DNA of 56,216 bases from Candidatus Zhuqueibacterota bacterium (GCA_015491485.1 WFVT01000025.1:1-56216); one strand, 5' to 3'; positions 9,801 through 42,451 are shown, counted from the first letter of the stretch. Numbers and translations are program-made. The notes: generated from the sequence alone by a model not told the origin.

Positions 9801-12800
9801 CACACGCTTGCGGTTACGGTCTTCATAGCCCGGCGGGATACGGAGCGGGATGCGATAAAGCGTCCACCCACCGCCCTGTTTATTATCGCTGGCAATGAAT
9901 ACGGTATCCGGGCTGAGCTTGTCGAGGTTGATGGTGTATGAAAAATAATTGTTGGCGCGGTCCACGGTCCCGTTGCCGTTCAGGTCTTCGGTATTCGGGA
10001 TGCGCGTACCATCATTCTTATTGTTCTCTGTACCGTTGATAAAATCGTACTGGTTACTCCCCTCGGAATAAGCCCAGTCGTCCCAACTGATCGGCTCCCA
10101 GGGCTCGCGTACGCCGTTGCCGTTGATATCCCACCAGTCTTCCGGGTCCTTTCCCGGCATACCGTCGAGGCCCACATCTTCGTCATCTTCGAGCGTGTTG
10201 TTGCGGATGCCGCCGCGCAGTTTATCCTCGGTATCCAGGCGGCGATTGGGAATGACGTCTTCCGATATTTGTCCGAGATCGATGTGCAGGATGCCTTTAT
10301 CGCCGCGCACCATGATTTCTAAAAATTTACTTTCGGTCTGATCATAAAATCCCGGTGACAGCGCACGCATAATCCCACCCCAGGATTCCTGTACCGGGAA
10401 GCTACCGGAATCATGGGGCATAAAAACCAGGGTCAAAATATCGGTGGTCTGTCCGGTTTGAACTGTCACTTCCCGCTTGGGCCAGATATCTTTGATCGGC
10501 CATCCGCCGAACGGATTGTACCATATAAGCCGACCGCGTTTTTCCGAGCTTCGCATGTAAGCTTCGATGGAATTGTTTTCGATGTAGTCCTGGGGGGCGG
10601 AAGAAAGCGTCCAGGCGCGGCGCTGCACTCCCAGCGGCGTCACACGTTTGGCGCTTTCAAAATCGTCAATATACGCCACCCCTTGATCATCGCCGGTGGC
10701 CCTGTTGTTCAGCGTATTGGGATTGGGAATCACCTGCGCAATCTCGCCCTCGAATTTGAGGCTGGACGGCTGCTGAGCCGTGATAAGCGGCAAGGCATCC
10801 AGAGCTCTGGTGAGAAAATTGGGTTTGAAATTCAGTGACGTATTCAAATCCCAGACCACATTGCGCATGGGCCCCTGGCCAACCCGCACTTTCGTATCCA
10901 GGGTGCGTTCGTTCAGGTAGAGAATCGTGCCGCCCAGAAAATTATTTTCGCCAAAGCGATATTCGGCGCGTGTGCCGAGGATGGTTTTCTTTTCGAGCTG
11001 AAACAACTGATTGCGCTCATAAGTGATGTCAATTTGTGCGTTGGGATCGGTGGCGCGCTCATCCAGAATGGTCAGCGTACCGGACAGATAATCAATCGTA
11101 TAATCCCGTCCGCGCTGCAACCGCTGGCCGTTTAAGATTACCTCCTCTGAATTTTCGATAACATTGAATCCCAGTGAGTAATTGGCGCTGCGGTTTTTGG
11201 AAACCACTTCGATGTAAAAACGGCTGTTTTGAGTAATAAAGCTCTGGCTGGTGGTGTCGTAAATCATGGGTTCGCGCTTCGCCGGATCGAGCTTGGTGAT
11301 TTCGAATTCGTCCGGCTCAATGATACCGTTTTTGTTGAAATCGATGAATACCGTATCCGGATCGAACGGCCGCAGGTTTGGAAAAATCAGCTCACCGCGC
11401 GCCCGGTTGATGAGATTATCATCGATATCGATGTTGTAATCTGGATTGAGATTACCGTCCTTATCGCGGACATCCAGGCCAAAGATGTGCAAATAGGAAT
11501 CTTCACCCTGACTTTCCTCGTCGGATCCCGAAGGCGGCTGATAGAAAATTTTGACCTTAAAGCTCTCTTCATCGACCTCGATATTGCGCGCACCCAGCGA
11601 ATAGACGTTTTTCCATTCCAGGTTCCAGGTTTTGAAACTCGGGGTCGGACTCTGGGCTTTAATCAGCTTCAGAATGATGGTGCTGTCGGATTGCGCATCG
11701 AAATCGATATCGCCGATTTTCCTGCCGGAACTGTCTTCAAATGCCACCGCAAGAACGTCTTCCGGTCCCAGGGGCTGGTTCATGATGATATAACCGAGGC
11801 TGTTTTCCACCACATAGTCCTGCTCCGGCTCCAGCCGGATGAAATGCCCGAGATAGACTTCTTTGTCGCTGATATTCAGTGTATCTTGCGGGCTGTTCGG
11901 ATCAAGAATGGCCCAACCACGAATCGAATTGGGATCGAACTCATACCCGGCTTTGGATTTATACACCTCGATGCGTTTAATGGCGCGGGCGGGATCGTAC
12001 ATGTGAACCCACTTTTCGCTGTAGTTGCGGTACTGACGCCGGAAAAAGTCATCGAGAAAGAAGTATGTGAAACGTTTATAGCGGTAATCTTCGATACGCT
12101 GTTTGCCTTCTGTGGCGCCGCCGCCGATTTTGAGTCGCTGGCTTTCCCCTTTTTCCTGGCTGGCGATGGTGGTCACATGCAGATCTCCAAGCTGCATTTT
12201 CATTTTGACGCCGAACAGGCCGGTATTTTTACCGCTAAACGTGACAAAACGGGTGGCCGGCAGGGACAGTGAAATGTTTCCGGCTTCAATGCTCTGGATG
12301 ATTTCATCCTCGAAGCCACGGTAATTCAACTTGATGTTGTTATCGAAATCGAACGCGCGCTCGGAATCCTGATCCACGTTCACTGTGACTTTCTCGCCGA
12401 TCCGGCCGGTCACGGTAAAACGCTGAGTCTGGGTCATTTTAAAATTGGTGTTTGATCCCTGCGCGATGGAGGTGCGCACCTCACTGCGTTTTTCGTTACG
12501 AAACCCACCTTCAATGCGGATATCCCCCTGCACGTTCAGTCCAACGCTGCTGCCGCCGAAAATTTTCTGAAAAGTCTGGCTTTTAATGGGAACAGGGATA
12601 TCAATGTTGACGCCGCCGGGGCCCCGTCGGTGTTGGGTCAAAGAAGCAAATAGATGCTTAACAGAACTTTCTCGCCATACTTGTTCCTGGACATGCTCGC
12701 TTTGTGCCAATTTATACCGGGTGAATGGAACAAAGCGGGGGACGCGTAAATGATGTCCACTCAACGTCTCGCTGGCGATCACGTATTTTCCGGTGGAGTC

Positions 12801-13073
12801 CAATTTGACGGTGTGACGGTAGGATCGGGGGCGCACAAAGCTATAGCCCCGGGGCAATCCGGCCATGGATAGACCGGGCCATTGCTGGTCTTTATACAAG
12901 TTGGCGAGGGGAGCCGCCGGAAGCGGCGGTTTCAACCCAATGCCCGAAACCGAACTGGTCTTATGATTTCCCTGAGAATAGACCTGTACTGCCAGGCCAA
13001 TCAAAAACAGCAGAGTCAAATAGGTCCGGGAAATCCAAAGGCCGGAAATGTTTGGAAAAAATCTGGAGACCAT
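6888..13073 (-). CDS. sprA: Type IX secretion translocon / cell-surface protein SprA (Sov)
   Basis: 2061 aa with signal peptide; SprA-like motifs (YIDDFESA, RGRLIWYN, LHIDLGQISED, NTEDLNGNG, GQIWLNELRL) and long amphipathic beta-strand C-terminus. Confidence 0.92.
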   Translation of the reverse strand: MVSRFFPNISGLWISRTYLTLLFLIGLAVQVYSQGNHKTSSVSGIGLKPPLPAAPLANLYKDQQWPGLSMAGLPRGYSFVRPRSYRHTVKLDSTGKYVIASETLSGHHLRVPRFVPFTRYKLAQSEHVQEQVWRESSVKHLFASLTQHRRGPGGVNIDIPVPIKSQTFQKIFGGSSVGLNVQGDIRIEGGFRNEKRSEVRTSIAQGSNTNFKMTQTQRFTVTGRIGEKVTVNVDQDSERAFDFDNNIKLNYRGFEDEIIQSIEAGNISLSLPATRFVTFSGKNTGLFGVKMKMQLGDLHVTTIASQEKGESQRLKIGGGATEGKQRIEDYRYKRFTYFFLDDFFRRQYRNYSEKWVHMYDPARAIKRIEVYKSKAGYEFDPNSIRGWAILDPNSPQDTLNISDKEVYLGHFIRLEPEQDYVVENSLGYIIMNQPLGPEDVLAVAFEDSSGRKIGDIDFDAQSDSTIILKLIKAQSPTPSFKTWNLEWKNVYSLGARNIEVDEESFKVKIFYQPPSGSDEESQGEDSYLHIFGLDVRDKDGNLNPDYNIDIDDNLINRARGELIFPNLRPFDPDTVFIDFNKNGIIEPDEFEITKLDPAKREPMIYDTTSQSFITQNSRFYIEVVSKNRSANYSLGFNVIENSEEVILNGQRLQRGRDYTIDYLSGTLTILDERATDPNAQIDITYERNQLFQLEKKTILGTRAEYRFGENNFLGGTILYLNERTLDTKVRVGQGPMRNVVWDLNTSLNFKPNFLTRALDALPLITAQQPSSLKFEGEIAQVIPNPNTLNNRATGDDQGVAYIDDFESAKRVTPLGVQRRAWTLSSAPQDYIENNSIEAYMRSSEKRGRLIWYNPFGGWPIKDIWPKREVTVQTGQTTDILTLVFMPHDSGSFPVQESWGGIMRALSPGFYDQTESKFLEIMVRGDKGILHIDLGQISEDVIPNRRLDTEDKLRGGIRNNTLEDDEDVGLDGMPGKDPEDWWDINGNGVREPWEPISWDDWAYSEGSNQYDFINGTENNKNDGTRIPNTEDLNGNGTVDRANNYFSYTINLDKLSPDTVFIASDNKQGGGWTLYRIPLRIPPGYEDRNRKRVGNPDLSQIQYARIWINGVTEETVIRIAEINLVGNEWKELGVSDSEEPNSYNAENDTTVAVTVVNTHDNPKYQPPPGVEGKFDRLYRIREKEQALVLDVNGLKPGQNGIAQKTFFQPQNYIYYNRLRMFIYARDEGGLHITPDSSTIEVFFRFGSDINNYYEIRERVYAGPSPMLGGWDERNHIDIEFIKLTSMKLDSSLYNPDIGAFEKEIDGKLYRIKGNPSITNVRTLIVGVKNLSRLSAPFYGQIWLNELRLSEVQKNRGIAMRARMDLRLSDFMSVNGEINRQDADFHNVATRFGSGDNRLSMRLNSSVKLDRFFPQSWGISLPLNLTYNESRATPKYFPGRDIEVIPKEVPADKLAEIQSFNRQQGVSVSFRKSKSSKNFLLRYTIDRLSANLSHTRTNMSSATIRFQNRVVWKGALDYSLQFGQNTFIRPLGWAKKLPLLSKLADTRLYYLPRNISAKISGNNSRSNSETRSGVKSDVFTYDIVRSYNTTYKIFDNLTTTFSRNMQGDFRKRGWQGLFSGEFEDLSKSQNFRVDYSPTLVSWLNQRFSYNATYRYVNNIQQKTTGKSATVSANVSAQLTLRLSQLFRKSSSAGNYGRRRRTPPGARRRPPGARGQKEGEKKKEEKQEDKKKRNPVSLLKGMLGVLRTLDDINVSYSRRRNYRNVGLKPGDPSLRYTLGFSTNPGLGTVPEITTVTFTNNENQSFNVSTGLRLGRSLSLKLRFNHSSQANYGNQITGSYSNSWMQIGNLNMPFPEWTFTWSNIERFKLFRKFANSINISHNVSGKRSVFWKDKRSGKTKEDFSFNFTPLLKLSINWKNGMVTNLDITRTRSINESFNINTVTELLQKVGGQRNTRLEIRFTTTYSKRSGFRIPFLSKKELKNSVDFSLSFTRSMNRTEQIRGGSNEWVLSNERTSWTFEPRVTYEFSSRVRGSAKFIVGRTKSTRAGETFIREFGIDVNISIRGN

Positions 13074-27474: not shown

Positions 27475-28323
27475 TTAGCGGGGAATCCGCAACACCTGGA
27501 ACGGATAAATTAAACTCGGATCGCTGCCTACGATATCCTTATTAGCCTCATACAATTTGGTCCACAGAGTGGGATCACCCAGGACATCGGCTTTACCGGC
27601 GATCTTGTAAAGGAAATCTCCTTTTTCAACCAGGTATTCATCCGGCCCAACTTCACGCTGAATCTTGAAGATTTGATCCGGATAGATTAAATCGGGGTCT
27701 TTGATCTGATCACGATTGTAGGAGTAAATCCTCACCCACTGGTAGGGATCTCCATAAATATCGCTCTTCCCCGCAATTTTCCAGAGATAATCGCCGCGCA
27801 TCACGGTATATTCATCGTAAATAGCTTTCGGCATGCGCGTACGCAGCTGCGTAATTTTGCCTTCAATGGAAGCAACCAGATTTTGCATCTCGGTCAGAGC
27901 ATAAATTTTGCTCTCTTTCAGCTCATTGAGTTGGGCTTCGAGATCATCCAATTCTTTGCGGCGCTTAAAAAGCTCTTCAGGGCTCAAAGCCATCAGACCA
28001 TCGAGCTGATTATTCAATGCATTCAACTGATTGCGGTAAGCATCGACGCCGGCAGCATCGGTCCCCAACATGGCGTAAATTTCATTCCAGACGGAGGCCG
28101 TTTGCTGTTCGGTTTCCTGGATCTGTTGCTTGAGGTTCGCAATTTCTTGATCCAGTCTGGCGATCTCCGCTTTCGCATCGGCTTCCCGCTTCTGCCACTC
28201 CTGCAATTGCGCCTGATATTCTTCCATGGTCATTTTTTCTTCTTGAGCGAAGGAAGCCGTGGCAAGCGAAAAAGCAAAAGCCCCGCACGCGATCGCCAGG
28301 GTGAATTTTGCAAACATCTTCAT
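27475..28323 (-). CDS. Exported coiled-coil protein with two C-terminal LysM domains
   Basis: Signal peptide ...ASFA-Q; heptad-rich helices; YTVMRGDYLWKIA...LIYPDQ and YLVEKGDFLYKIA...LIYPFQ. Confidence 0.92.
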   Translation of the reverse strand: MKMFAKFTLAIACGAFAFSLATASFAQEEKMTMEEYQAQLQEWQKREADAKAEIARLDQEIANLKQQIQETEQQTASVWNEIYAMLGTDAAGVDAYRNQLNALNNQLDGLMALSPEELFKRRKELDDLEAQLNELKESKIYALTEMQNLVASIEGKITQLRTRMPKAIYDEYTVMRGDYLWKIAGKSDIYGDPYQWVRIYSYNRDQIKDPDLIYPDQIFKIQREVGPDEYLVEKGDFLYKIAGKADVLGDPTLWTKLYEANKDIVGSDPSLIYPFQVLRIPR

Positions 28324-28362
28324 CTTTCACTCCTCAGATTATTTTAGTTAGGTTCTCCCTCT

Positions 28363-28629
28363 CTAAAGTCCCAAACGCTGTTTTACCGCCTCTTTTTCGT
28401 CTTTGGCCTTTTGCAATTCGCGCTTCTTCTGCTCAAGCTGCCGTTCTAAATCGGCTTTTTCGCGGCGCTTCTGCTCCACCGTCTGCTCGGCAGACAGGGC
28501 CGCCTGCTTCGTTTCCTCCAGTACCCGGAGCTGCTCTTCATTGGGATGTTTGGTGCAACCCACGATTCCCAGAGAGGCGGAGAATCCCAGGAGCAACCCC
28601 CAGTGTACCATCGTTTTGGCGATTTTCAT
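28363..28629 (-). CDS. Small coiled-coil lipoprotein (88 aa)
   Basis: AAGGAGGT RBS before ATG 28629; lipobox IVGC; mature part is one E/K/Q-rich helix. Confidence 0.85.
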   Translation of the reverse strand: MKIAKTMVHWGLLLGFSASLGIVGCTKHPNEEQLRVLEETKQAALSAEQTVEQKRREKADLERQLEQKKRELQKAKDEKEAVKQRLGL

Positions 28630-28750
28630 AAACGTTACACCTCCTTCCGGTTTTCCTTCCCATTGACTGTGTATGGCTTTAAAAGGAATTTTGACAAAAC
28701 CCCGCAAAGATTTATGTTTTTTAAGGATTAACCGCAGTTTATGCCGAATT

Positions 28751-28779
28751 ATTATAAGAATTAAATCATACTTTGTCAA
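28751..28779 (-). promoter_or_regulatory. Perfect-consensus sigma70 promoter for the lipoprotein-LysM operon
   Basis: TTGACA-17-TATAAT exactly. Confidence 0.88.
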
Positions 28780-30689: not shown

Positions 30690-30723
30690 AAAAAAAGAGC
30701 CACCCCATTCCGGCAGGCAGCTC
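30690..30723 (-). terminator. Intrinsic terminator ending the Agl-Glt-like operon
   Basis: GAGCTGCC/GGTGGCTC stem (G-U pairs valid on minus strand) followed by T7. Confidence 0.75.
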
Positions 30724-30754
30724 CTCGATAAATACGAATCTTGCGAAGAAGGGT

Positions 30755-31867
30755 TTAATATCCAAAAGTATAAACCTGTTTGAAGGCCGTATTGCCTTTG
30801 GATTTATCGATCGCGCCGAAATTCCATCGCTTGATGCGATTCACGATACAGCGTTCCACACGCCGATTCCGCAATGTGGAAGAAACAATCGTCACTTCCA
30901 CTACTTTCCCGGAAGGATCAATGATGAAGCGTACCACGACTTTGCCGCGAAGATTGGGGTTCCGCTTGAGTTCGCGCTGATAGCAATATTGGATAGCCGC
31001 ATTATGAGACTTCACAATGGCGGCCACGGCATCGATATCGCGGGCGCCGCGATTCACCGGCTCTTCCGTTTCTTCAAGCAGAGAACCTGACGCATCGGTA
31101 ATCATATCCGCGCTTCGGGAAACACCGGCGACTTCGGATTTCCCCAGCCCTTCCACCAGTTCATCGATACCACCGCCACCGGTTTCACGGGCAGCGCGCA
31201 CATTCTTTCCTTTGCCTCCTCTGCCGCCGCTACCGGCTTCCCCGCGCTTCAAACCGGAGATGTTTTCCAGCGCCTTATCGAGATTTTCGCCGACTTTACC
31301 CCGGCTCAGCACGTCTTCCACCTCTGAACCCGAGGCGGATTGACTCGTGCTGGTCAGCAAGCCCAGGATGCCCTGATTGCTCACCGCTTTTTGAATCTGC
31401 TCGCGGGTGCGCCGCCGGCTGGCCGCCGCCGATGCGCGTTCGGCTTTTCGTCCTTCTACGGTGGCGGATCGGCGGGTTTTTCCTGTCCGTTTCGGAGCCT
31501 TCTCGGAAGGGGCTTTTGCTTCGGGCTGTTTTTCTTTTGGCTGCGTCTTTGCCTTGCTTATATCCGCCGCTTCCGCGAATCTGACCGTTTCCTCGATTTT
31601 AGGCCTGTCAAGAACCAGACTGGCAAACCGCTTCTGAATTTGGGCGATTTCTTTCTCGGTGACTTCTCTGGTCGGCGGATGGGTGGCAAAGTAAGCCACC
31701 ACCGCCAGATGAATGATTAGCGAAACGATCAGAATGGCTGTATATCGCTTATCCAGACTATCGATGAGTCGCCGTTCGAATTCCTTTGGAAAAACACCCG
31801 TTGCTATCGGTTCCATATCCTGAGACCGGCCCTCCCTGGCAATTGAATGATTGGATTGCATCGCCAT
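30755..31867 (-). CDS. TonB/TolA-like energy transducer with AgmX/PglI (GltG/GltJ-type) C-terminal domain
   Basis: Single TM with SLIIH (TonB/TolA-like S..H), charged and Gly-rich linker, IQYCYQRELKRNPNLRGKVVVRFII...VERCIVNRIKRWNF; start likely ATG 31867. Confidence 0.88.
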   Translation of the reverse strand: MAMQSNHSIAREGRSQDMEPIATGVFPKEFERRLIDSLDKRYTAILIVSLIIHLAVVAYFATHPPTREVTEKEIAQIQKRFASLVLDRPKIEETVRFAEAADISKAKTQPKEKQPEAKAPSEKAPKRTGKTRRSATVEGRKAERASAAASRRRTREQIQKAVSNQGILGLLTSTSQSASGSEVEDVLSRGKVGENLDKALENISGLKRGEAGSGGRGGKGKNVRAARETGGGGIDELVEGLGKSEVAGVSRSADMITDASGSLLEETEEPVNRGARDIDAVAAIVKSHNAAIQYCYQRELKRNPNLRGKVVVRFIIDPSGKVVEVTIVSSTLRNRRVERCIVNRIKRWNFGAIDKSKGNTAFKQVYTFGY

Positions 31868-31931
31868 GTGGACACCTTTTCTTTGTCCTTGATGGGGGTG
31901 AGTCAACGTAACCCTGTGTTTGACATCGGCA

Positions 31932-32441
31932 CTATTCTTCTTTTCTATAGACGATCAGACGCATATTCGGATACTCGGAAAGGCCGCATGTCCGCATCAC
32001 CTTCACCAACTGAGCATACTGCAAATCCTTATCCCCCTGAATCGTTACTTTGCCGGAAAATTTCACACCGTATTCTTCTTCCATTTTTTTCGCATGTTTG
32101 GCAAAATACAGCAGCTTATCCTGCAAAGGTTTGATAACACCATTTTCCACCACGCCGGGCTTATTCTGTATCACATCCTGCAATCGCACCACGGGTTCAT
32201 CATTCACCATGATGCTCTGCTTCGACACGACCAGATCCAAAGCCACTTCCGGCGGATTTTCAATCGTGGACTTGGGCAGGGTTAAATGCTGTGAAGGGGA
32301 AATAAGCTGTCCATCGGTTGAATAGGTTTTTAGCAGAAACAGCAAAATAATGGTGAACATATCCATCATCGAGGTCAGGTTCAATTTTGCCTGCCCCGGA
32401 TCGGTTTTATGCTTTTTTATCCTGGATGGTATAAACGCCAT
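31932..32441 (-). CDS. ExbD/TolR-family stator subunit (AglS-like), Asp-containing
   Basis: TM LNLTSMMDMFTIILLFLL; IQGDKDLQYAQLVKVM periplasmic motif. Confidence 0.9.
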   Translation of the reverse strand: MAFIPSRIKKHKTDPGQAKLNLTSMMDMFTIILLFLLKTYSTDGQLISPSQHLTLPKSTIENPPEVALDLVVSKQSIMVNDEPVVRLQDVIQNKPGVVENGVIKPLQDKLLYFAKHAKKMEEEYGVKFSGKVTIQGDKDLQYAQLVKVMRTCGLSEYPNMRLIVYRKEE

Positions 32442-32491
32442 CGCTCATCCTCAACGGTTTCAACGTGTTCAATTCCCGTTTCACTCAACCA

Positions 32492-33034
32492 TCATTGCTC
32501 AATGATGCCGGCACTCAAAGATACCTGCGGGAACAGCACCACTTGCCGATGGTTAATCGTAATTGACCGGGAGGCATCCATGGTGCTGACCAGGGTCTGG
32601 TAGTCAATGCCCGGCTCCGCCTGGATAATAATGTTCTCCAGGTCGGGGAACTTGCCCTGAGCTTTTTGCTTGATTTCATACAGTTTTTCAGACAGGGCTT
32701 GAAAATCGAAAGACCCGTCGGGCTTTTTGGGGATCGAGGGGCCGCTCCCACTTTTGGGGCGCAGTACCGCCAGGGCGCTGGAGATATAAAATCCCTCGTC
32801 CGTGATCGATACCGTCAGGTCTAAATTCTTCACCTTTTCGGCGGGCTTTTCACTGACGGTTTGAACGGGGCCCGCCGCCGGTGGCAAATTCAATTCGATA
32901 CTGCCGATTTTAATAAACTCCGCTGATGTGAGTAACAGCGGAATCAATACCACCATCAAATTCATCACGGGAGTCAGGTTGGGTTCAACCTCCTCCCCTT
33001 CGATCGTCCTGCGAAAAGATGGTCTGTACGCCAT
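32492..33034 (-). CDS. ExbD/TolR-family stator subunit (AglQ position), Asn at the conserved Asp
   Basis: TM NLTPVMNLMVVLIPLLL; IIIQAEPGIDYQTLVSTMDASR. Confidence 0.9.
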   Translation of the reverse strand: MAYRPSFRRTIEGEEVEPNLTPVMNLMVVLIPLLLTSAEFIKIGSIELNLPPAAGPVQTVSEKPAEKVKNLDLTVSITDEGFYISSALAVLRPKSGSGPSIPKKPDGSFDFQALSEKLYEIKQKAQGKFPDLENIIIQAEPGIDYQTLVSTMDASRSITINHRQVVLFPQVSLSAGIIEQ

Positions 33035-33122
33035 AGTTCAATACACCCGGTTTATCGCATCCTGTTAATAATGCATTGCGAAATGTTTTCAGGGGAAAAG
33101 AAGTTCCCCAGGGCCATCTATC

Positions 33123-33773
33123 TCATTGATTCCCCGTAATCAGGTTAATCAATTTCACCGTATGTTCATCGATTTCATCGATAATTTTGATGGTTTTGTT
33201 GTGCAAAAAGGTGTAAACCAGAATAGACGGGATGGCAATCGCCAGGCCGAGCAAGGTCGTGTTCATGGCGGTACTGATGCCTGCCGCCAACATTCGCGAC
33301 TTTTCTGCCGCATCGATTCCCGCCACCGAAACAGAGCGGAAAGCCAGGATGAGACCCCAAATCGTGCCCATAAGACCAATCAGGGTTGCGACATTGGCCA
33401 GCATGGCAAGAAATCCCGTCCGCTCCTGGAGCTTGGGAATCACTTCCAGGGTGCCTTCGTCAACGGAATTTTGAATGGTTCGGAAGTCAATGCTTTCGCT
33501 TTCCGCTACTTTCCGCAAACCGGCGCCAACCACTTTGGGCAGGGCTTTATTGGGCGCCGCTTCACACAGGGCCAATGCGCGTTTGTACTCGCCCGCCCGC
33601 ACCAATTTGCGAATTTCAGCCATGAATTTCGGCGCATCAATGTTTGAACGCACCACGATGTAATACGTCCGCTCGATAGCAATGGCAATGGCGACTGCCG
33701 CAACGATGGCCAGAGCTACCATGAAGTAGAAACCACCGGAATCTGGTGAAAATCCAGCAATAATTTCACTCAT
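33123..33773 (-). CDS. MotA/TolQ/ExbB-family channel subunit (AglR-like)
   Basis: 3 TMs; ATLIGLMGTIWGLI, AGISTAMNTTLLGLAIAIP; start ATG 33773 after GGAGG. Confidence 0.93.
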   Translation of the reverse strand: MSEIIAGFSPDSGGFYFMVALAIVAAVAIAIAIERTYYIVVRSNIDAPKFMAEIRKLVRAGEYKRALALCEAAPNKALPKVVGAGLRKVAESESIDFRTIQNSVDEGTLEVIPKLQERTGFLAMLANVATLIGLMGTIWGLILAFRSVSVAGIDAAEKSRMLAAGISTAMNTTLLGLAIAIPSILVYTFLHNKTIKIIDEIDEHTVKLINLITGNQ

Positions 33774-33922
33774 CGAACAAACCTCCATTTTGAGTTTAAA
33801 GTCCTTTTTTCGCAGGTATCTTTCAATTCCCTTTCATAAAGATACCCACTCACTCAGGTGATTTCAGTTTTTTCGTATTGGATTGCAAATGGAACGAGAG
33901 AGATCGAACGACATCCTCGTCA

Positions 33923-34339
33923 TTACTTTTTCAGCTTTTTCTGCCGCTTTTTTAGAATGGCTCTGAGGCGAGTCAAACGTTTTGCGGAATCCAGCTCCTC
34001 ATCATAAAGCAGCAGATTTTTGGGGATTTCTTTGATTTCATGCTCAAAAGTCCGGTCGATAAAGGCAATTTCCTCCATATCCACTTTGATGCGCTTTGGA
34101 AAAATATCCACATTGGGCCTTTCCACCACAGCTTCGATAATGATTTCACCCAGCTCAAACTCCGGCACGACGATCTGTTTTGCCGGTTTCTTTTTTTCTC
34201 CTTTATCAGCAGGGTTCTGGGCTTTCGCTTTGATCGGCGGCGGGGATTTGGGTCGTTCTGTCTGTTGTCCCAACACCACTGCAGGCACGCCTGCCAGCAT
34301 CAACGCAAGCATCACACGGATTCCGCGCATATCCATCAC
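33923..34339 (-). CDS. Small exported protein, GltF/CglF-like
   Basis: Signal peptide ...VVLG-Q, Pro/Lys linker, FELGEIIIEAVVERP...IDRTFEHEI recalling the CglF pattern; position between TPR genes and stator genes. Confidence 0.6.
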   Translation of the reverse strand: MMDMRGIRVMLALMLAGVPAVVLGQQTERPKSPPPIKAKAQNPADKGEKKKPAKQIVVPEFELGEIIIEAVVERPNVDIFPKRIKVDMEEIAFIDRTFEHEIKEIPKNLLLYDEELDSAKRLTRLRAILKKRQKKLKK

Positions 34340-34341
34340 CT

Positions 34342-37300
34342 TTAATTCACTTTTGGTAAAATGCCTTTATCGAAAAGCAGATTTTCCTGCTCGCGTTTTT
34401 TCTGCACCCGGATTTCAGCCTCCCGCTTTGCCCAGCCGGGCAGGCTTTTCAGAAAAACCAGGGCTTCGATGCCGCCACCGGTGCGGTCATCATCATGCAC
34501 GAAAAGCGCGATCCGGTTTTTGCCCGATACGAGGAAATCTGTAAAATCGTGAACCTGTGGTGCAGTTTGGGCGCTATCGAACCTCGCTTCGCTGATAAAT
34601 TCGCCATTCACGTAAAGCTGATAGCCATCGTCCGCCACAATTTGAATTTGCGCCATCACCGGTAATCCAGGCACCTCGAATGGCTTGCTGAAATACACCT
34701 GATAAACCGGCGGCTGATCGGACGAATGCATCGCGGTTTCGATGTGAGTGGAATCGATTGCAACCTTCGTTTCGGGGCGGCTGCTATCCGCGAAAGTGGT
34801 TTCAGCGCTTAGCGCCGTACTATCCGCGACGAGGCTGTCCGCCTCCATGCGGAAGGCGCCGGAATCCACTGGAGCCGATATCGCCGGCCAGCGGAACCAG
34901 ATGCGCTTCACCGGATATCCCGAGAAAGCCCGGGATGAATCGACCACCACGGCGGCGGCCCAGCCGGAGTCATCAAACTCGGCATCGGTCCAATTGCTAT
35001 CGGGCTCGACCGATGCTTTCCAGGTTTCATCGGTCCCCAGGGTAAAATCATAAATATCCAATCCCAGAATTCCGGCATATTCTTCAGGATTGCTACGCAC
35101 CAGCGCTAAAACAATGTCCTCGGTATCTTCATTCTGCAGTTGATACTTTTGCACCGCGGCAAATCCCTGTTCCAGCACTTCCTTTTTCGCATCCAATAAA
35201 CTGAAATAATTGTCCTCGAAAGTGAACAGCCCATCCTCCAGATAATCTTCACCGGCTTGCCGCAATCGGGCCTCAAATGTTTTCCGGTGTCGATTGGTTT
35301 CTGCAGCCAGCGAATCCAGCTTTTGCGAGAAGCGGTTGACAAACCGGAAGAGTGCTTCCTCAGTATGCAGCAGATCGTAGTTTTGAATGCCCCGTTTTAG
35401 CGCCGTTTCCAATGTATTTTCATAGGCGAGGATGGTCGCCTTGGCGAAAGCATTGCTAAAGTCGATAAAGTTTGCCATTTCATCGGCAATGCCCAGAGCC
35501 ATCACATTATCTTCGGGAAGGGTGGATAGGTAGGCGGGCACCCGATCTTGATATCCCTGCAACGCTTCCCACGCCAGTTTGCTGTACTCTTCAGCAATGA
35601 GGCTGTTCGTGGAAATAATCTTACTGCGGGATGATTCGACCCACTGATTATCAAGCCCCAGCTCTTCGGCTTCGGCCAAATTCCGGGCATGCGCCTGCAC
35701 GATTTCATCCACCAACGGCCGGACGAATTTGCCGATCAACTGATTCCGGAATTCCAGTGATGTAATTTTATCCAGTCCGGGCGGCAAAGGCGCATTCAGC
35801 AATTGTTGTACCGAAGAGTAATTGATTTCAGCAATATCATAAATCACTTCGGAAATTTTTTCATTTGAGCGGTCGATCCAGCGCTGGGCGATTTGAAGCG
35901 TCGAATCCGCGAAACTGATCTTTTGGCCGGCCTGCGAGGTGGATAAGCTATCGCCGTTGCTCATGGTTTTCCGGTATTGCTCGGAAATGCGCGTCAACAC
36001 TTCGCGGCTGTTCTTATAAGCCTCTAAAGCGCGTTCATACAACTGCGCGGCGGTTTCGTTGATTTCTTTTTTAGCGACAATCCGCTTCTCGAGTTGCGCT
36101 TCGGGAATATCCTGATTCGCCCAAGTCTCCGCAAAATTTTCGTAAGCCAATCCTATTTTAAACGTGGATTCGTACAGCCGCAGGGTTCCATACGCGGCCA
36201 CACGGGCGTAATTATCCACGATTTCAAGAAGCATCTCCTTTTTGCGCTTCTTGGCTTCAGCCATCCGTTCGGGCGGCAGCTTAAATTCGATCTGGCTATA
36301 TTCATCAAATTGAAGTTCGGTCAGCCGAAACAGCGCTTCCGCAGCGAAAAAGTCATTGGCATCTTTCCCGGCCCGGGCAAACGCTTCGCTTTTTTGGATC
36401 GCCTGCTCATATTCCTGCCTGGCCTGATCAATCTGTCCACGACTTTCGAAATACTCGCCGCGCCGGAAGTGCGTCTCGACCACCCGAGGGGAGTCCGGGA
36501 AGCGGCGGGCATAATCGCCATAAATATCATTGGCTTTGTCCAGGTCACCGAGTTTCAAATAATACGTGGCAATGTCATAAAACAAATCATCCGCATCCTG
36601 AGAATTGGGATAGCGATCTACGAACTTTTTGTTCACCCGGATAGCGCGGCTCCAATCTTCGGCCTTGACATAAAACACGGATGCATTGTAAAGGTGGGTT
36701 TCCGCTTTGGCAGAATCAGGATCTTCTTCCGCCAGCCGCTCGAAAGTTAACGCTGCATTGGTATAATCTTTCAGCTCGCCGTAATCCAGCGCCATATTGT
36801 TCAGTGCGGAGATGTAGTATTGCGATTGCGGAAAACGCTGGGTTAAAGTGGCATACACTTCTACAGCAAGGCCGTATTCACGGGCACGATCATATTCGAG
36901 GCCGGCATTGAACAGCGCCAAATCGGCAAATTCGGCATCCGGAACTTCTTCCGCTACACGGCGGTACTCTTCGGCCGCCCGGAAATGTTTTTCCAGATCG
37001 GCCAGGTTTTCCGCCTGCAGAAAGATAGCTTCTGCCAGCCGCTGATTGGCTTTGGCGGCGTATTCCGGATTATTGGCTTTCTGACGAAGCCGCCGCGCCA
37101 CAATTTCCACGCTTTTGTAATCCAATTTGCCGAAATAGCTTTCCATCACCAAATACTCAGCATATTCGGCCAGCGGATGTTCCGGAAAATGCTTCAGTAA
37201 CGTTTTAAAATATTTGAGTGCATCGACAAAATGGTTTTTGTTGTAATAAATCGATCCGGCCTGACTTAACCGCTCCGGAGTGTCATCGTCGAATGGAAAC

Positions 37301-39006
37301 AGCTTAATAAAATTGTCAATTGCCTGCGTAAGCATGATTTCGCCTTCGGACAGCGGGATGGGCTCCAATTGCAACGACTGCCGGAGCTCGCTGCTATCCT
37401 GCATGGCCTTTTCTTTTATTTCGCTCAAGGCCAGCGGCATCACCTCTTCGCGTTCAACAGTATCTGCCGTCGCAAGGTCCTGTGCGATGGCGATGGCATT
37501 GGTGGCGGCATCTTTTTGGAATTTGGTATCCCAATACCGATTGCTGATTTGAATGTATTCATCAAACGCCGATTTCGGCATGTTCAGCCGGGTATCGAGA
37601 ATCAGTGCCATATTCCAGTGGATTTTCACGGCGTTGGTATCTTGTGGAAAATATTTCAGATATTCCCGGCTGTCTTCCACGGCTTGATAATACAGATTTT
37701 CGTCACCGGTCTCGTTGGCGGTCTGCACCAAAAGATTGATATTGGCACGCATGGCCAGTTCAGCCAGATCACGGGCGCGTTTGCGGGCCGCCTCATCATC
37801 AACACGCTGCCACCAATCCGACCCCTCCCGATAATTTTGAAACAGCGCTTTGCGGGCAAGATAGGTTTTTTGATCGTTGCCCATTTTGCGGTAAGCTTCC
37901 GCAATTTTCGCCTGGATCAATGGCGCGTCTTTCGCGTAAGGATACATCCGCAAAATGGTCTCATAAGCCTCGACGGCCATATCATATTCTTCTTTGACTT
38001 CCAGATAGGCATCGCCCATCTTTTTGAGAATATCAAAACCGTATTCTCTGCCGCCGATTTTTTCCAGATAATCGGCGACGCCATCCACCCCGCTGAAATC
38101 AAGAAAACTGATGCCGATATATTCCACCGATTCTTCTTTCAGCGCCGGGTTGGTGATGCGGTTGTAGGGATCGAACTTTCGCGCCTCTTCGATGTCATCG
38201 GCCAACATGGTGAAGTAGGAAATGGCTTTGGGGTAATCGTTTAACCGGTAATAGCTCCATCCCAGTCGATACAGCGCTTCATCATAGCGCGGGCTGTCGG
38301 TGAAAGCCAGAATCCGCTTGTAAATTTCGATGGCGCGCTCGATCTGGTTAACCGGTGGATTAAAATAATACTCCGCCTGCCGCATGAGGACTTCGGGCAT
38401 ATACCGGCTATCCGGGAACATTTCAGCAAATTTTTCATACAGCGCGAGGGCATCTTCTCGCTGCCCGGTCTCCTCTGTCAAATAGGCGATATTGTACATC
38501 GCATCGTCCAACAGCGGGCTATTGGGGAAATTGTCGATGATGTATTGATACAATGCAATGGATCGGGAATAATCTTTTTTCGGCTCTTCCGGAAGCTCGG
38601 CGATTTTGCCTTCATCATATAGCTCGAGCTGTTCTCCGTACCGTTCTTGCGCCAATTGGTAGTTTTCCTCGGCTTTTTCGAGATACAACTCAGCCAGGCG
38701 AAAAACCACTTTATCGAGTACGCGGCTGTCCGGATGATTGCGAATAAACGCTTCGAGGTCGCGTATGCCTTTATCGCGCAGCTTAATCCGTTCGGCTTCG
38801 AGGCGATCGCGTTCGGCTTCATAAAATTCTTTGTAGGACAGCAATTCATCCAGCGAATAAACGCGCAGCAATGAATCGCCCAGCGCGTCGATTTCTGTGA
38901 CCGATGCGATCGTCTGTCTGTCCTGCGCCCGGGAAACGACTGCGGCCGACAAAACCCAAATGCAGGCCAATATCCAAAGCGATGATTTTCTCATTGAAAA
39001 TACCAT
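34342..39006 (-). CDS. Very large periplasmic TPR protein (GltD/AgmU-like) with C-terminal jelly-roll/carbohydrate-binding-like domain
   Basis: Signal peptide ...VSRA-Q; many TPRs (FPNSPLLDDAMYNIA, YDEALYRLGWSYY, FADLALFNAG); C-terminal TDETWK...FDDSGW...ADDGYQLYVNGEF...GKNRIA. Confidence 0.85.
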   Translation of the reverse strand: MVFSMRKSSLWILACIWVLSAAVVSRAQDRQTIASVTEIDALGDSLLRVYSLDELLSYKEFYEAERDRLEAERIKLRDKGIRDLEAFIRNHPDSRVLDKVVFRLAELYLEKAEENYQLAQERYGEQLELYDEGKIAELPEEPKKDYSRSIALYQYIIDNFPNSPLLDDAMYNIAYLTEETGQREDALALYEKFAEMFPDSRYMPEVLMRQAEYYFNPPVNQIERAIEIYKRILAFTDSPRYDEALYRLGWSYYRLNDYPKAISYFTMLADDIEEARKFDPYNRITNPALKEESVEYIGISFLDFSGVDGVADYLEKIGGREYGFDILKKMGDAYLEVKEEYDMAVEAYETILRMYPYAKDAPLIQAKIAEAYRKMGNDQKTYLARKALFQNYREGSDWWQRVDDEAARKRARDLAELAMRANINLLVQTANETGDENLYYQAVEDSREYLKYFPQDTNAVKIHWNMALILDTRLNMPKSAFDEYIQISNRYWDTKFQKDAATNAIAIAQDLATADTVEREEVMPLALSEIKEKAMQDSSELRQSLQLEPIPLSEGEIMLTQAIDNFIKLFPFDDDTPERLSQAGSIYYNKNHFVDALKYFKTLLKHFPEHPLAEYAEYLVMESYFGKLDYKSVEIVARRLRQKANNPEYAAKANQRLAEAIFLQAENLADLEKHFRAAEEYRRVAEEVPDAEFADLALFNAGLEYDRAREYGLAVEVYATLTQRFPQSQYYISALNNMALDYGELKDYTNAALTFERLAEEDPDSAKAETHLYNASVFYVKAEDWSRAIRVNKKFVDRYPNSQDADDLFYDIATYYLKLGDLDKANDIYGDYARRFPDSPRVVETHFRRGEYFESRGQIDQARQEYEQAIQKSEAFARAGKDANDFFAAEALFRLTELQFDEYSQIEFKLPPERMAEAKKRKKEMLLEIVDNYARVAAYGTLRLYESTFKIGLAYENFAETWANQDIPEAQLEKRIVAKKEINETAAQLYERALEAYKNSREVLTRISEQYRKTMSNGDSLSTSQAGQKISFADSTLQIAQRWIDRSNEKISEVIYDIAEINYSSVQQLLNAPLPPGLDKITSLEFRNQLIGKFVRPLVDEIVQAHARNLAEAEELGLDNQWVESSRSKIISTNSLIAEEYSKLAWEALQGYQDRVPAYLSTLPEDNVMALGIADEMANFIDFSNAFAKATILAYENTLETALKRGIQNYDLLHTEEALFRFVNRFSQKLDSLAAETNRHRKTFEARLRQAGEDYLEDGLFTFEDNYFSLLDAKKEVLEQGFAAVQKYQLQNEDTEDIVLALVRSNPEEYAGILGLDIYDFTLGTDETWKASVEPDSNWTDAEFDDSGWAAAVVVDSSRAFSGYPVKRIWFRWPAISAPVDSGAFRMEADSLVADSTALSAETTFADSSRPETKVAIDSTHIETAMHSSDQPPVYQVYFSKPFEVPGLPVMAQIQIVADDGYQLYVNGEFISEARFDSAQTAPQVHDFTDFLVSGKNRIALFVHDDDRTGGGIEALVFLKSLPGWAKREAEIRVQKKREQENLLFDKGILPKVN

Positions 39007-39009
39007 GAT

Positions 39010-41919
39010 TTACAATATTTCACTCGACCCCTTGCTGCTCTGCTGTTGAACCGGCAGTTCCGTGGTGGTAGTATCAAAATAGAGTTTCTCAAATATCTTT
39101 TCATGCTCCAACTTTCTTAGCCGAAGCTGTTCCGCCTCCAGCTCTTCCCGGATGCGTTCCATTTCCGCGTCAAAACGGGCGAGTCGTTCTTCCAGTGCTT
39201 TCCGGCGGCGCCGCATCAGTTCTTCAATAAATATGACATTCTGGGTATATTGCGAAATTTTTTCATCGCGCTTCTGAATTTCCTGCATGGTAATATCGCT
39301 TAATCCGAAACCAGAAAAGTCGGCCCAATGATCGAAATCGGTCGAGATTTCCTCGACCTCGTGTTCACTGAGCCAGGTTTGAAACCGGTCCATTCGATCC
39401 CGCAACCGCTCCAGGTCTTCCTGAAGCGCTACCAGATCGATTTGGCTGGCCTTATCAGGATGCTTCCGAACCAGTTCGCGGGCCTTTTGCAGCGCTTTTT
39501 CAATTCGGGCTTTTTCCAGTTCCATATCACGCAACATGTCCTGCAGCACCCGCTTGCGGTATTTGCTGGCACTTTCCCGCGTCGCCAGGGGATAATCAAT
39601 AAAATAATTGACATGCTCGATTTCCCGATCCGCCTGATAGGTCATCAAGGCTTTGATCAACCGTTCTCTTTGGGCGACCGCGGTTTTCACCACTTCGGTT
39701 TTGCCGGCTTTGCGCGCTTCAGCAATGATTTGCTCCAGCTCCTGAATCTGCCGGTAAATCGCCTGCCGTTCGGAATCGAACTCCTGAATCAGAGTGCTGC
39801 CAATCCCGCCTTCATAGCCGAGATTCAAAATTTGCTTTTGCAATTCAAATTTAATTTGGGATATCACTTCGTAGAGCTGACGGTCCTGCCGATCCAGCAC
39901 CTTTTTTTCCATTTCTTCAAGCTCATCGAGCTGCTCCAGCAATCTGCGGCGCTCTTCATTATAACGATTGGCAATATCCAGCACACCGCGGGCATTGGCC
40001 ACATATCGCAAATCTTTTAGCGCATCATCCGGCTGATTCAGAAGCCGCTTGCAATGGGCGGCAAGCACCAGTGCTTCATAGGTATAATTGCTGGAAAGGT
40101 AGTTGCCAAACAGTTCATTCACCACCCGGATGGCTTCCTCGTATTCGCCGTTTTTCATATGGGCCCAGGCGAGGCCTACCAAAACCTTATCGCGTTCCTC
40201 CACGCCCCGGCTGATCCGGTTCAGGTATTGAAGCGCTTTTTCATATTCGCCGCGATCGTAATAAATGTAGCCCAATTTCAGGAGCGCATTGTTTTTCAGT
40301 TCCGCCAGCAACGGATCTGACCAGGGCAGCAAGTCAGAATCCACCAGCAGACTGAAAATGCGGGTGGCGCCCTCATAAGCCCCGCGGTTGGCCAGAGCCA
40401 ATCCGGTTAAATACAAGCCCGGAAAATAGTATTTGGAACCTTTTTCAATTTTGGTCAGTGCATCTTCCGCCGAACGCGTATCGCGATTTTGAAGGAAATA
40501 GTATCCGGCAAGATAATAGATGCGGTTACGGATTTTGGGATGCACCTCGTCGGCGAATGTCTTGAACTGCTCGAATAAACGGTAGAAATCATCTTTGTGT
40601 TTGAGGGTTTGCGCAATGGTCAGCATGCGCAGATAGGCTTCATCCCGGAAACGGGTATCCGGATAATCTGCGAGGAGCGTTTTATAGCCTTCGTAGGCTT
40701 GCTCATAAAACAACTGCGCATATTGCGCCTCGGCGCGGTAAAAATAAACCGCTTCCATTTTCGGAAAATACGGCCGATAATCTGCGATAATTTCATTAAA
40801 CTGGAGCTCGGCCAACCGGTAATCGCCGTCCGCATAATTGAGCAAAGCATCATTTATATCGCGTTCCAGCATGCGGGAACGTTCCCGGTCTTCGCCGCTC
40901 TCCAGCAGGAAAACCTTCATCACCTTGTATTCCGTAAACTTCGCCTCCCATTGGCTCAGCCGGGCTTTTCGCCATTCGTCGAACATTTGACTGACGGTCG
41001 GACCCTGAAGCGGCAGATAATCGGTATAGCCAAACAGTTTCAGCAGACGCCGGTCCATCCGTGACAGCAGTTCCCGGCGGAGCACTTCCACCTCGGTCAG
41101 GACTTCGGGATCCGTCTGTCCGGCTTCTTTTTGCAGCTCTTCCAATTCTTCCAGCACACGGATGGTCTTTTGCACTTCGTTAAAATATTCATCCGCCAGT
41201 TTTTGCTTCAGACTGTCGCTTTGTGTGCTGTCGCCGACCGCGATAATTTGTAAGATACGCCGTTTCTGCCGGTCGATTCGTTCCAAAAGATCATAGTCAT
41301 TTAACCGCCGGGCGGCTTTTTCCATTTCATTCAAGCGCTGATAAAACTGCTTAAAATAATCCAATTCAAAATCATATTCTTTCAGCAGTGAGCTGATGTA
41401 TCCATACGTAGCCGGTAATTTTTTAAACAGGTCACGGTTGTCAATCACCGCTTCCAGAGAGTCTTTCAGGGATGCGAACAGGTCCGCCATACCGTAACGC
41501 TGTTCGCGCACCATCAGCTCTTCCAGCTCGCTGATTTCAGCAATCAGGGTTTGAATGCGTTTAATTTCTTCGTTATAAGATTGGACCATAGCCTCAATGT
41601 CGCCATAGAGCCGGGTAAAACCGGGCTGATCCTCGAGGATCGCTTTGGCGCCGCGGCTTTTCATTTCCGCCGCAATGTTCTGGATCAACTGCAGGAGCAT
41701 CTTCTCTTTGACGACCATTTCCTGCAGAAAATCCTTACTCTGCTCGTCAAGATAAAACCGCAGACGATCCTCGAAATCCACCTGAATCAGTTCTTCCGTC
41801 TCTTGGGAATGTTGAGCCAGCAACGGAGATGCACTTCCCGCCAGGAGTACCAACATGAATAAGACCGTAAGGAAAAAAGGCGGAAGGCTATGCTGAACTC
41901 TCCCTAGTTCCTTGCGCAT
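39010..41919 (-). CDS. Large exported TPR / coiled-coil protein (possibly GltC-like)
   Basis: Signal peptide ...PLLA-Q; central TPRs (ALLKLGYIYYDRGEYEKAL, VLVGLAWAH) flanked by long coiled coils. Confidence 0.85.
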   Translation of the reverse strand: MRKELGRVQHSLPPFFLTVLFMLVLLAGSASPLLAQHSQETEELIQVDFEDRLRFYLDEQSKDFLQEMVVKEKMLLQLIQNIAAEMKSRGAKAILEDQPGFTRLYGDIEAMVQSYNEEIKRIQTLIAEISELEELMVREQRYGMADLFASLKDSLEAVIDNRDLFKKLPATYGYISSLLKEYDFELDYFKQFYQRLNEMEKAARRLNDYDLLERIDRQKRRILQIIAVGDSTQSDSLKQKLADEYFNEVQKTIRVLEELEELQKEAGQTDPEVLTEVEVLRRELLSRMDRRLLKLFGYTDYLPLQGPTVSQMFDEWRKARLSQWEAKFTEYKVMKVFLLESGEDRERSRMLERDINDALLNYADGDYRLAELQFNEIIADYRPYFPKMEAVYFYRAEAQYAQLFYEQAYEGYKTLLADYPDTRFRDEAYLRMLTIAQTLKHKDDFYRLFEQFKTFADEVHPKIRNRIYYLAGYYFLQNRDTRSAEDALTKIEKGSKYYFPGLYLTGLALANRGAYEGATRIFSLLVDSDLLPWSDPLLAELKNNALLKLGYIYYDRGEYEKALQYLNRISRGVEERDKVLVGLAWAHMKNGEYEEAIRVVNELFGNYLSSNYTYEALVLAAHCKRLLNQPDDALKDLRYVANARGVLDIANRYNEERRRLLEQLDELEEMEKKVLDRQDRQLYEVISQIKFELQKQILNLGYEGGIGSTLIQEFDSERQAIYRQIQELEQIIAEARKAGKTEVVKTAVAQRERLIKALMTYQADREIEHVNYFIDYPLATRESASKYRKRVLQDMLRDMELEKARIEKALQKARELVRKHPDKASQIDLVALQEDLERLRDRMDRFQTWLSEHEVEEISTDFDHWADFSGFGLSDITMQEIQKRDEKISQYTQNVIFIEELMRRRRKALEERLARFDAEMERIREELEAEQLRLRKLEHEKIFEKLYFDTTTTELPVQQQSSKGSSEIL

Positions 41920-42020
41920 TATAGCCCTCGTTGATTAGAGGTAGGCAATCCAGGAAAGACCCGCTTCCGCGTTACCCTGAACCCGTCCAACACTGCGATA
42001 GCCCTTGAACTCCAAATGTA

Positions 42021-42238: not shown

Positions 42239-42451
42239 CGAACACAGAAAGAAAATATCGATTAATTCAGGATAACGCCTGAGGTCGGGACAAAATCCTT
42301 TTTGCCACCGCCCGGGTATTTAAGGCGATTCCAGATGACGTTTTACCTTTTCAATTTGTGGGAAAGTGAATGATGACTGCATCATGCAGCCGGGCATCGA
42401 GCCAGATACAACTGCTTTTCAAAATTTCATCGGTTACAGTAACCGGTATCA

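Follow-up and report, generated by a model that had tools for sequence, protein, structure and literature searches.

An Agl-Glt-type core operon without GltE in candidate division KSB1, a phylum with a Type 9 secretion channel and no detectable GldKLMN motor

The closest described counterpart of the locus treated here is the Agl-Glt gliding motor of Myxococcus xanthus, together with its relatives in bacteria that do not glide. In the account of Luciano 2011, the core present in non-gliding bacteria consists of gltC, gltD, gltE, gltG, aglR, aglQ and aglS plus one extra gene, and its function is given as unknown (PMC3169522); the job of this core outside the myxobacteria has been unexplained since 2011, and KSB1 offers a named motor, adaptor and barrel for it. 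In the AlphaFold model described for Myxococcus, a strand of GltF lies against the TonB-type domain of GltG, the GltF helix sits in GltC, and GltC lies beneath the outer-membrane barrels (PMC11761067). The likeness of GltF to a TonB box was noted in a review, in which both AglQ and AglS are predicted to retain the ion-binding aspartate (PMC9389320). Here, a stretch of 56,216 nucleotides from Candidatus Zhuqueibacterota bacterium (GCA_015491485.1, WFVT01000025.1:1-56216; this whole stretch is called the window throughout) was analyzed. On sequence comparison, seven of its genes, at positions 30755 to 41919, form a variant of the Agl-Glt core complex with GltC-, GltD-, GltF-, AglR/Q/S- and GltG-like proteins and without GltE.

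The seven open reading frames are all on the minus strand and encode, in operon order, proteins of 969, 1554, 138, 221, 180, 169 and 383 residues, with intergenic gaps of 3, 2, 134, 88, 50 and 25 bp. Pfam and NCBIfam scans of the window proteins (43 proteins in the Pfam scan) called them, in the same order, tetratricopeptide repeat (TPR), TPR, no family, MotA/ExbB, ExbD, ExbD and AgmX/PglI C-terminal domain. The gene atpC lies 1180 bp upstream and aspS 200 bp downstream. The operon is closed by an intrinsic terminator-like structure (30690..30726, minus strand), consisting of a 12-bp hairpin at 30726-30694 and a U-tract; the hairpin has a stability of -16.4 kcal/mol (z -2.4), which was equalled in 4/200 shuffles. 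The first-pass annotation, made from the sequence alone, had described seven co-oriented genes closed by a terminator, and this was confirmed. The source genome assembly (4.45 Mb, 397 contigs, 91.9% complete; its sequence names are prefixed G000) was compared with relatives in candidate division KSB1, to which the closest named homologues of the GltG-like gene belong. The phylum sample comprised 91 KSB1 genomes, each at least 90% complete. Sixty loci were fetched and, together with the window and contig C110 of the source genome, were sorted by layout into type I (41 loci, the window included), type II (15) and lone GltG-like genes (6), so that the core loci number 56. The gene order of the window was repeated in 40/40 further type I loci from relatives, one of them truncated by a contig end, and the arrangement is therefore not due to chance.

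The identity of the components was tested with profiles made from the KSB1 orthologues, which were run against myxobacterial loci. The first gene (39010..41919) encodes a GltC-like protein of 969 residues, predicted to be a periplasmic TPR scaffold with a signal peptide and no lipoprotein cysteine. It matched NF033756 at E 1.2e-8, far below the equivalog cut-off, and its profile scored 87-99 bits against the myxobacterial proteins in the GltC position, over profile positions of about 350-640 and above other TPR matches. Its residues 342-736 correspond to the entire type II GltC-like protein (hhalign probability 99.95), to which type I adds about 300 N-terminal and about 230 C-terminal residues. 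The second protein (34342..39006; 1554 residues) is a putative periplasmic TPR protein that is GltD-like over residues of about 60-1000; the GltD-like profile matched the Myxococcus gene in the GltD position, between the GltC-like and GltE-like genes, with 529 bits over positions 60-998 (about 940 positions). Its C-terminal extension of 400-500 residues is the mark of type I and is present in 71/91 genomes. The end of the extension is a sugar-binding-type beta-sandwich at about residues 1432-1524 (PF02837 at E 0.002 and NF041573 at E 1e-9, both below cut-off), and comparison of the tail with Atlas structures gave scores all at or below 0.81. Fusion of GltE into this long tail was considered and rejected, the match being a 16-bit one at the level of TPR likeness. 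The third gene (33923..34339; 138 residues) encodes a small protein with a signal peptide, a low-complexity linker, a TonB-box-like strand and a C-terminal helix, which may serve as a GltF/CglF-like periplasmic adaptor. On its own it had no family match in Pfam or NCBIfam; its family is present in 56/56 KSB1 core loci, with the TonB-box-like strand conserved, and its profile scored 31-45 bits against the myxobacterial genes just before gltG, which in turn match CglF NF033764 below cut-off.

The motor genes follow. The fourth gene (33123..33788; 221 residues) encodes an AglR-like protein of the MotA/TolQ/ExbB family (PF01618, E 2.4e-24) with three membrane helices, the presumed subunit of a pentamer. 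In a tree of 29 rows (12 type I, 9 type II, 7 ordinary ExbB and 1 myxobacterial AglR-like, the last on a long branch), it clusters with the type II and myxobacterial rows, apart from the seven ordinary ExbB rows (support 100/98). The fifth and sixth genes encode ExbD/TolR-like chains of a putative axle (both PF02472): the first (32492..33034; 180 residues) has Asn25 at the position of the usual ion-binding aspartate, and the second (31932..32441; 169 residues) retains Asp27. Asparagine stands at this position of the first chain in 53/56 loci, with aspartate in the other 3, and the second chain has aspartate in 56/56; the same Asn/Asp pair was found in one myxobacterial locus. The last gene (30755..31906; 383 residues as called) encodes a GltG-like, putative TonB-type force transducer with a membrane helix at residues 53-77, a long linker and an AgmX/PglI domain with two cysteines. 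It scored 99.7 bits with NF033768 (cut-off 40) and E 6.5e-36, below cut-off, with NF033760; only three proteins with an AgmX/PglI domain were found in the source genome. The start codon is probably the ATG at 31867, which would give 370 residues, the length of the top homologue. The membrane helix at residue 53, about 40 residues from this likely start, leaves no room for a cytoplasmic forkhead-associated (FHA) domain. The core families named in the first-pass annotation thus stand, while the 969-residue GltC homologue had gone unnamed there and the start of the last gene needs the revision given above.

The features of the core that were found are a distinct AglR, two ExbD genes, the AgmX/PglI domain of GltG, GltD and GltC, in a single cluster together with a small gene. 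GltE was not found: there is no gene between the GltD-like and the small genes in 56/56 KSB1 core loci, and the lipoprotein model NF033758 reached at best 77 bits against a cut-off of 225. For this reason the operon is classed as a variant and not as a plain member. Genes of the myxobacterial clusters themselves match the GltC, GltE, CglF and GltG models below the equivalog cut-offs. In the search for GltA/B-type barrels, TIGR04565 gave 0 matches and three myxobacterial barrels no match at E<=0.01, GltH not being searched separately. No TonB-dependent receptor was present among the 43 window proteins scanned. Neither TolB, searched at the locus only, nor Pal was found in the locus; Pal stayed below cut-off genome-wide, in a search whose control was matched (2/14). 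The earlier statements that the operon encodes no GltE, barrel, TonB-dependent receptor or Pal, that it is related to the Agl-Glt core and that it is not an ordinary Ton or Tol locus were therefore upheld by the searches, by the profile matches to genes in the GltC, GltD and GltF positions with NF033768 over its cut-off, and by the placement of the AglR-like protein outside the ordinary ExbB rows.

Two forms of the core occur in KSB1. The type I layout (41 loci) comprises long GltC-like and long GltD-like genes, the small gene, AglR, two ExbD genes and a GltG gene without a cytoplasmic domain, and no barrel-family gene is present in the operon. Type II (15 loci) starts with a gene for a barrel of about 345 residues, which is first in 15/15 operons; its GltC- and GltD-like genes are shorter, and its GltG has an N-terminal domain. 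The source genome carries a second core of this kind, with its own barrel, on contig C110 (G000:C110:15040-24561; L001:6041-15562). The GltC-like gene is split in two there, as in 5/15 KSB1 type II loci and 3 metagenome loci, and this recurrence led us to reject an assembly error as the cause. Each form was detected in 71 of the 91 genomes, type II in 67 of them through its barrel and in 4 more through AglR (61-66% identity; 26 genomes searched). Both cores are present in 51 genomes, type I only in 20, type II only in 20 and neither in 0. The upstream neighbors of type I (41 loci) are an F-type ATPase operon in 15, a V/A-type ATPase in 9 (labeled by homology and size), a parAB-M23-bactofilin run in 7 and other genes, without annotation, in 9, the contig ending there in the remaining locus; aspS lies downstream in 27/41, usually with Lpp-like and LysM genes beyond. 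Operons resembling type I, next to atp genes or aspS, were also seen in metagenome contigs more divergent than the KSB1 set, where gene maps were made for loci of at least 6 kb among 80.

The phylum also has a Type 9 secretion system (T9SS) whose known motor could not be detected. The window encodes the SprA/Sov translocon (6888..13073, minus strand; 2061 residues; TIGR04189 937.5 bits, cut-off 200), 17.7 kb from the operon (18 kb in the first-pass annotation). The source genome gave 82 matches to cargo signals and 23 to the PorV family (16 of these over cut-off), and it encodes a PorU-like C25 peptidase of 1618 residues before a porV-like gene (NF033707, 371 bits against a cut-off of 420). 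Several PorV-family barrels lie directly beside cargo-signal genes, which suggests dedicated shuttles. Within this genome, to which the GldK, GldN and SprE searches were confined, GldL, GldM and GldN gave no match, and GldK and SprE stayed below cut-off; the best SprE/PorW score (98.8 bits against a cut-off of 250) belongs to a TPR protein at G000:C330:1535-3853, a possible divergent SprE. SprA and cargo signals are present in 91/91 KSB1 genomes. Over the same 91 genomes, GldM was found in 0/91, GldL over cut-off in 0/91 and DUF6089, which we take to be the PorG family, in 0/91; four weak GldL matches (E 4e-5 to 5e-3) were set aside because the N-terminal membrane part was missing. These searches were run without a positive control for GldL, GldM, GldN or DUF6089, so that a divergent motor could escape detection; two Parabacteroides records carried no gld gene, and the GldM search of one of them gave no match. 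Within this limit, the possibility raised earlier, that this lineage lacks GldKLMN, was supported, with SprA, PorV-family barrels and cargo all present. SprA, PorV and Plug without the rest of the T9SS were described in Ignavibacterium and Melioribacter, with no energy source named in the part of the report concerned (PMC11705866).

A family of outer-membrane barrels connects the two systems. By profile matches and gene order, one barrel family both heads the Glt-type operon (type II) and closes a T9SS attachment operon. Paralogues of the type II barrel in the source genome lie on C247 (203 bits) and C249 (157 bits), neither with a Pfam or NCBIfam match, and the C247 gene is the last in a run of porU-like, porV-like, Ig-fold lipoprotein and barrel genes. 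The window sprA heads a sprA-M28 peptidase-prmA run, which other KSB1 families extend to porU-like, porV-like and barrel genes. In 16/91 genomes, a barrel gene is found on the same strand as sprA, 9-25 kb downstream of it; the 10 of these loci that were fetched all read sprA, an M28 peptidase in most, prmA, frequently DUF4390 and a cargo protein, porU-like, porV-like and barrel, with a lipoprotein gene between the last two in 5 of the 10. This order was not seen within the stretch fetched at 10 other sprA loci or in the window. In the families with type I only, the barrel stands behind porU-porV in 9/10 loci, the tenth being cut at a contig end. The model of the C247 barrel (mean predicted local distance difference test 84.7) has 12 strands and a C-terminal helix at 339-408 (70 residues), which is its most conserved part. 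Its nearest folds are the COG4313 channel Pput2725 (4rl8) and FapF (5o67), at E of about 2e-8; no meaningful match came from searching PDB sequences with the barrel profile, nor any match from scanning metagenomes with one distant barrel relative. Among 20 long relatives of the barrel, 9 carry an OmpA wall-binding domain instead of the helix and 1 carries TPRs. As GltC is modeled as the scaffold that grips barrels, gene order points to the C247 barrel as the best candidate partner of the window GltC-like protein; the barrel connecting the cores with the porU-porV operon is a better candidate partner than SprA itself.

The machine is likely an AglRQS/TonB-type puller that acts on an outer-membrane protein encoded elsewhere, as was first proposed for it and as the lack of a barrel gene in the operon supports. 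That its target is a T9SS-linked barrel and its job secretion is our leading reading, a tentative one, which follows from the phylum having a T9SS channel without a detectable GldKLMN motor. What the analysis shows is homology, gene order, distribution and residue patterns. From knowledge of the protein families, five AglR-like subunits and the asymmetric axle pair would use ion flow through the single remaining aspartate. By analogy with the Myxococcus AlphaFold model, the GltG-like protein would span the wall and wrap on the GltD-like scaffold, its TonB-type domain would grip the TonB-box-like strand of the small protein, and the C-terminal helix of the small protein would sit in the GltC-like protein. 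The GltC-like protein may hold the barrel by its periplasmic face or by the conserved C-terminal helix, as gene order suggests. Either at SprA or during attachment by PorU, the pull might release or move complexes of PorV and cargo, the same job as that of the GldKLMN-PorG chain in Bacteroidota, and where type I was lost the type II paralogue would do its work. In the view put forward for the Bacteroidota T9SS, energy is spent on ejecting complexes of carrier and cargo, and PorG is the suggested link (PMC12635249). In Fibrobacter succinogenes, FSU_2396-2398 and FSU_2400-2403 (OmpA, two TPR, ExbB, two ExbD and TonB) were reported to be up on cellulose, and the same report cites a vesicle complex in which the TPR protein FSU_2397 occurs with cellulases, among which FSU_2914 and FSU_1685 bear a T9SS signal (PMC6851124). 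The Fibrobacter core of Luciano is listed as Fisuc_1892-1897 (PMC3169522), which we infer from gene order to be the same cluster as these FSU genes.

Several observations weigh against the secretion reading. Type I was not found in 20/91 SprA-positive genomes, belonging to four families and including assemblies of 1, 3 and 5 contigs. The median number of cargo-signal candidates per Mb is highest with type II only (39.1), followed by both cores (29.8) and type I only (25.4); these are first-look candidate counts used as a proxy, with at most 56 candidates scored per genome. The idea that cargo load tracks type I was accordingly rejected, the trend being opposite. The either/or pattern of the cores (naive P 0.003) may stem from roughly four losses of type I and perhaps a single loss of type II, and the P value overstates the pattern because independent loss events are few. 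C247-type barrels and their relatives are kept where type I was lost (12/12 in family f7), so they do not track the window operon. Tracking of type I by the orphan barrels was rejected in the same way, since the orphan-barrel profile matches 87/91 genomes, type-II-only genomes included. Of the 18 C247-type barrels examined, 11 stand behind porU and 6 elsewhere, the remaining one being cut off. The distance between operon and sprA on shared contigs (19, about 25, 37, 90, 92 and 160 kb) is not conserved, and the window is a housekeeping region (parA/parB, atp operon), so proximity was rejected as evidence; the first-pass annotation had itself called it weak. Three ordinary ExbBD(-TonB) sets in the genome could energize SprA instead, and SprA at E<=1e-70 was found in 0/20 non-KSB1, mostly myxobacterial, genomes with GltG-like genes. 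The special tie between this operon and SprA that had been put forward is thus not upheld, given the SprA-positive genomes without type I, one of them closed, in which cargo signals are denser. As type I is dispensable in such genomes, the link to secretion, if real, would run through either core and not through type I alone.

The rival accounts take up the same observations in other ways. A less likely one is a substitute for Tol-Pal, in which the motor remodels the links between outer membrane and wall through barrel anchors or through the pair of conserved neighbors after aspS (27475..28779, minus strand), an Lpp-like coiled-coil lipoprotein and a protein with a coiled coil and two LysM domains, with nothing specific to secretion. 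No Pal over cut-off was found in the genome, with the control matched in 2/14; the OmpA wall-binding domain is present on 9/20 long barrel relatives; and type I lies behind parAB-M23-bactofilin in 7/41 loci and before aspS in 27/41, usually with Lpp-like and LysM genes beyond. However, the terminator and aspS separate the operon from these two genes, the LysM protein occurs irrespective of the operon, the KSB1 barrels end in a helix and not in an OmpA domain, and the neighborhood may merely reflect an old gene order of the origin region. The LysM protein, a candidate tether between outer membrane and wall, is present in 91/91 genomes and mostly more than 50% identical; with it universal, the Lpp-like/LysM pair was rejected as co-lost cargo. 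Glycan handling, as by Myxococcus Nfs, is unlikely: the machine would spread or attach a polysaccharide or lipopolysaccharide layer. It would suit the sugar-binding-type beta-sandwich (weak matches) at the end of the GltD-like protein, the SLBB-like and sugar-nucleotidyltransferase-like genes (labels by inspection) between porV and barrel in type-I-only families, and lptF/G and lptD within the window. Yet no polysaccharide export gene was recognized beside the 41 type I loci, about 9 of which had unannotated neighbors, and the beta-sandwich is periplasmic with its matches below cut-off.

Gliding by a hybrid machine, in which a Myxococcus-type motor moves Type 9-exported surface adhesins, is improbable. 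The genome does encode mglA and mglB on C156 (221 and 60 bits to the Myxococcus sequences), an N-terminal cytoplasmic region resembling that of myxobacterial GltG is present on the type II GltG-like protein, and cargo proteins are numerous; but the window GltG-like protein has no cytoplasmic domain for joining a track, no GltA/B-type barrel was found in the searches given above (TIGR04565 and the myxobacterial barrels), PilT over cut-off accounts for mglAB, and the core is described as not sufficient for gliding in Luciano 2011 (PMC3169522). The mgl locus itself (G000:C156:17728-19268) holds mglB, mglA (MglA likeness 221 bits) and a roadblock-like third gene. We give as little credence to a specialized Ton system, in which the small protein would be a detached TonB box and the motor would open plugged barrels, such as one of the FapF/COG4313 fold, either for import or to let small substrates out. 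The best matches of the barrel model to 4rl8 and 5o67 (E of about 2e-8) and the review's remark on the TonB-box likeness of GltF (PMC9389320) favor it, but the fold match is generic (11-13% identity, TM-score of about 0.4 over the query), the genome encodes separate ExbBD-TonB sets and a receptor-like gene at other places, and two very large TPR scaffolds are unnecessary for unplugging a receptor.

Further observations concern the surroundings of the cores and related motors. The 1180-bp stretch at 41920-43099 between atpC and the operon contains no convincing gene. In the V/A-type ATPase loci (L106, L109, L110, L111, L114, L116, L118, L124 and L126), the core is still directly behind the ATPase genes, which may hint at coupling to the ion gradient or just reflect an old gene order. 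Lone GltG-like genes lie at G000:C273:2-1033 and in L148-L153, by eye in the families in which a second, C249-type orphan barrel is also present. At G000:C352:16827-23667 (L002), a Ton locus of another, TPR-linked kind encodes a 1029-residue TPR protein, a receptor-like barrel of 612 residues, ExbB, ExbD and TonB. Proteins of 430-440 residues in other lineages (L212:10769-12061, L222:10777-12099, L267:10804-12114) join a second AglR/ExbB to the first ExbD-like chain; these loci also hold a free AglR and an Asp-bearing ExbD, and the fused chain has Gly or Asn where the aspartate would stand. Second ExbB matches of similar size occur in L218, L223 and L279. Such a fusion would fix the ring as 4+1, tethered to one chain of the axle, and bears on whether the motor can rotate fully. 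Together with the one-aspartate axle, these natural fusions constrain the mechanism of the 5:2 motor.

A broader proposition, rather doubtful at present, is that basal members of the Fibrobacteres-Chlorobi-Bacteroidetes (FCB) group such as KSB1 power an older T9SS not by GldKLMN-PorG but by a TonB motor of Agl-Glt type that works through a FapF-fold barrel. If true, the translocon would be older than the Bacteroidota gliding track, the core of the Myxococcus gliding motor would gain a documented job as a secretion motor, and two unrelated gliding systems would be tied through a shared history of motor swapping. The T9SS is inferred in one account to have arisen within Bacteroidota gliding (PMC12635249), with which a phylum having SprA, PorV, a PorU-like protein and cargo, and no Gld chain, sits badly. 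KSB1 presents a motorless T9SS across the whole phylum with heavy cargo loads, and this bears on the proposed origin even if the link between core and secretion fails. In the literature searched, no title or abstract proposes the Agl-Glt core as a T9SS motor; subscription papers lay mostly outside that coverage, and supplements may bear on novelty. GltG, SprA and KSB1 are unmentioned in the main text of a study on the evolution of TonB/TolA-type transducers (PMC12204202).

Compared with described systems, the operon shares with the core of Luciano 2011, as set out there, its arrangement as one operon with GltC-, GltD-, GltG- and AglRQS-like genes and a small gene (PMC3169522). It differs from that core in that KSB1 type I has no GltE, has enlarged GltC- and GltD-like proteins and a GltG-like protein without a cytoplasmic domain, and in that its small gene is detectably GltF-like and the partner barrel is apparently encoded in trans; the cores reported in 2011 are patchy in distribution, whereas type I occupies a fixed housekeeping site in 71/91 genomes. 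The AglR5-Q-S motor, GltG, the GltD pillar, the GltF bridge and the GltC scaffold of Myxococcus xanthus, as modeled (PMC11761067), all have counterparts here; in contrast to Myxococcus, GltG of the KSB1 operon lacks the FHA domain, and a GltA/B-type barrel and GltE were not found. The first axle chain, with asparagine in 53/56 loci, departs from the prediction in the review that AglQ and AglS both have aspartate (PMC9389320). With ExbBD-TonB and TolQRA-TolB-Pal, the operon has in common members of the MotA/ExbB and ExbD families as well as a C-terminal domain of TonB type, but its AglR-like protein forms a separate branch, its locus lacks a receptor, TolB and Pal, and it adds two giant proteins with TPRs and, as adaptor, a soluble TonB-box-like protein. 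The barrel, for its part, is only 11-13% identical to COG4313 4rl8 and FapF 5o67 (TM-score of about 0.4 over the query) and has the 70-residue C-terminal helix in addition. The likeness proposed to the GldL/M-GldK/N-PorG chain of Bacteroidota (PMC12635249) is one of design, namely an ion-driven motor, a periplasmic scaffold and a barrel that would pass force to SprA and its carriers; there is no homology between the two, the KSB1 core would act by a TonB-type pull and not by a moving GldKN track, and its T9SS link is inferred.

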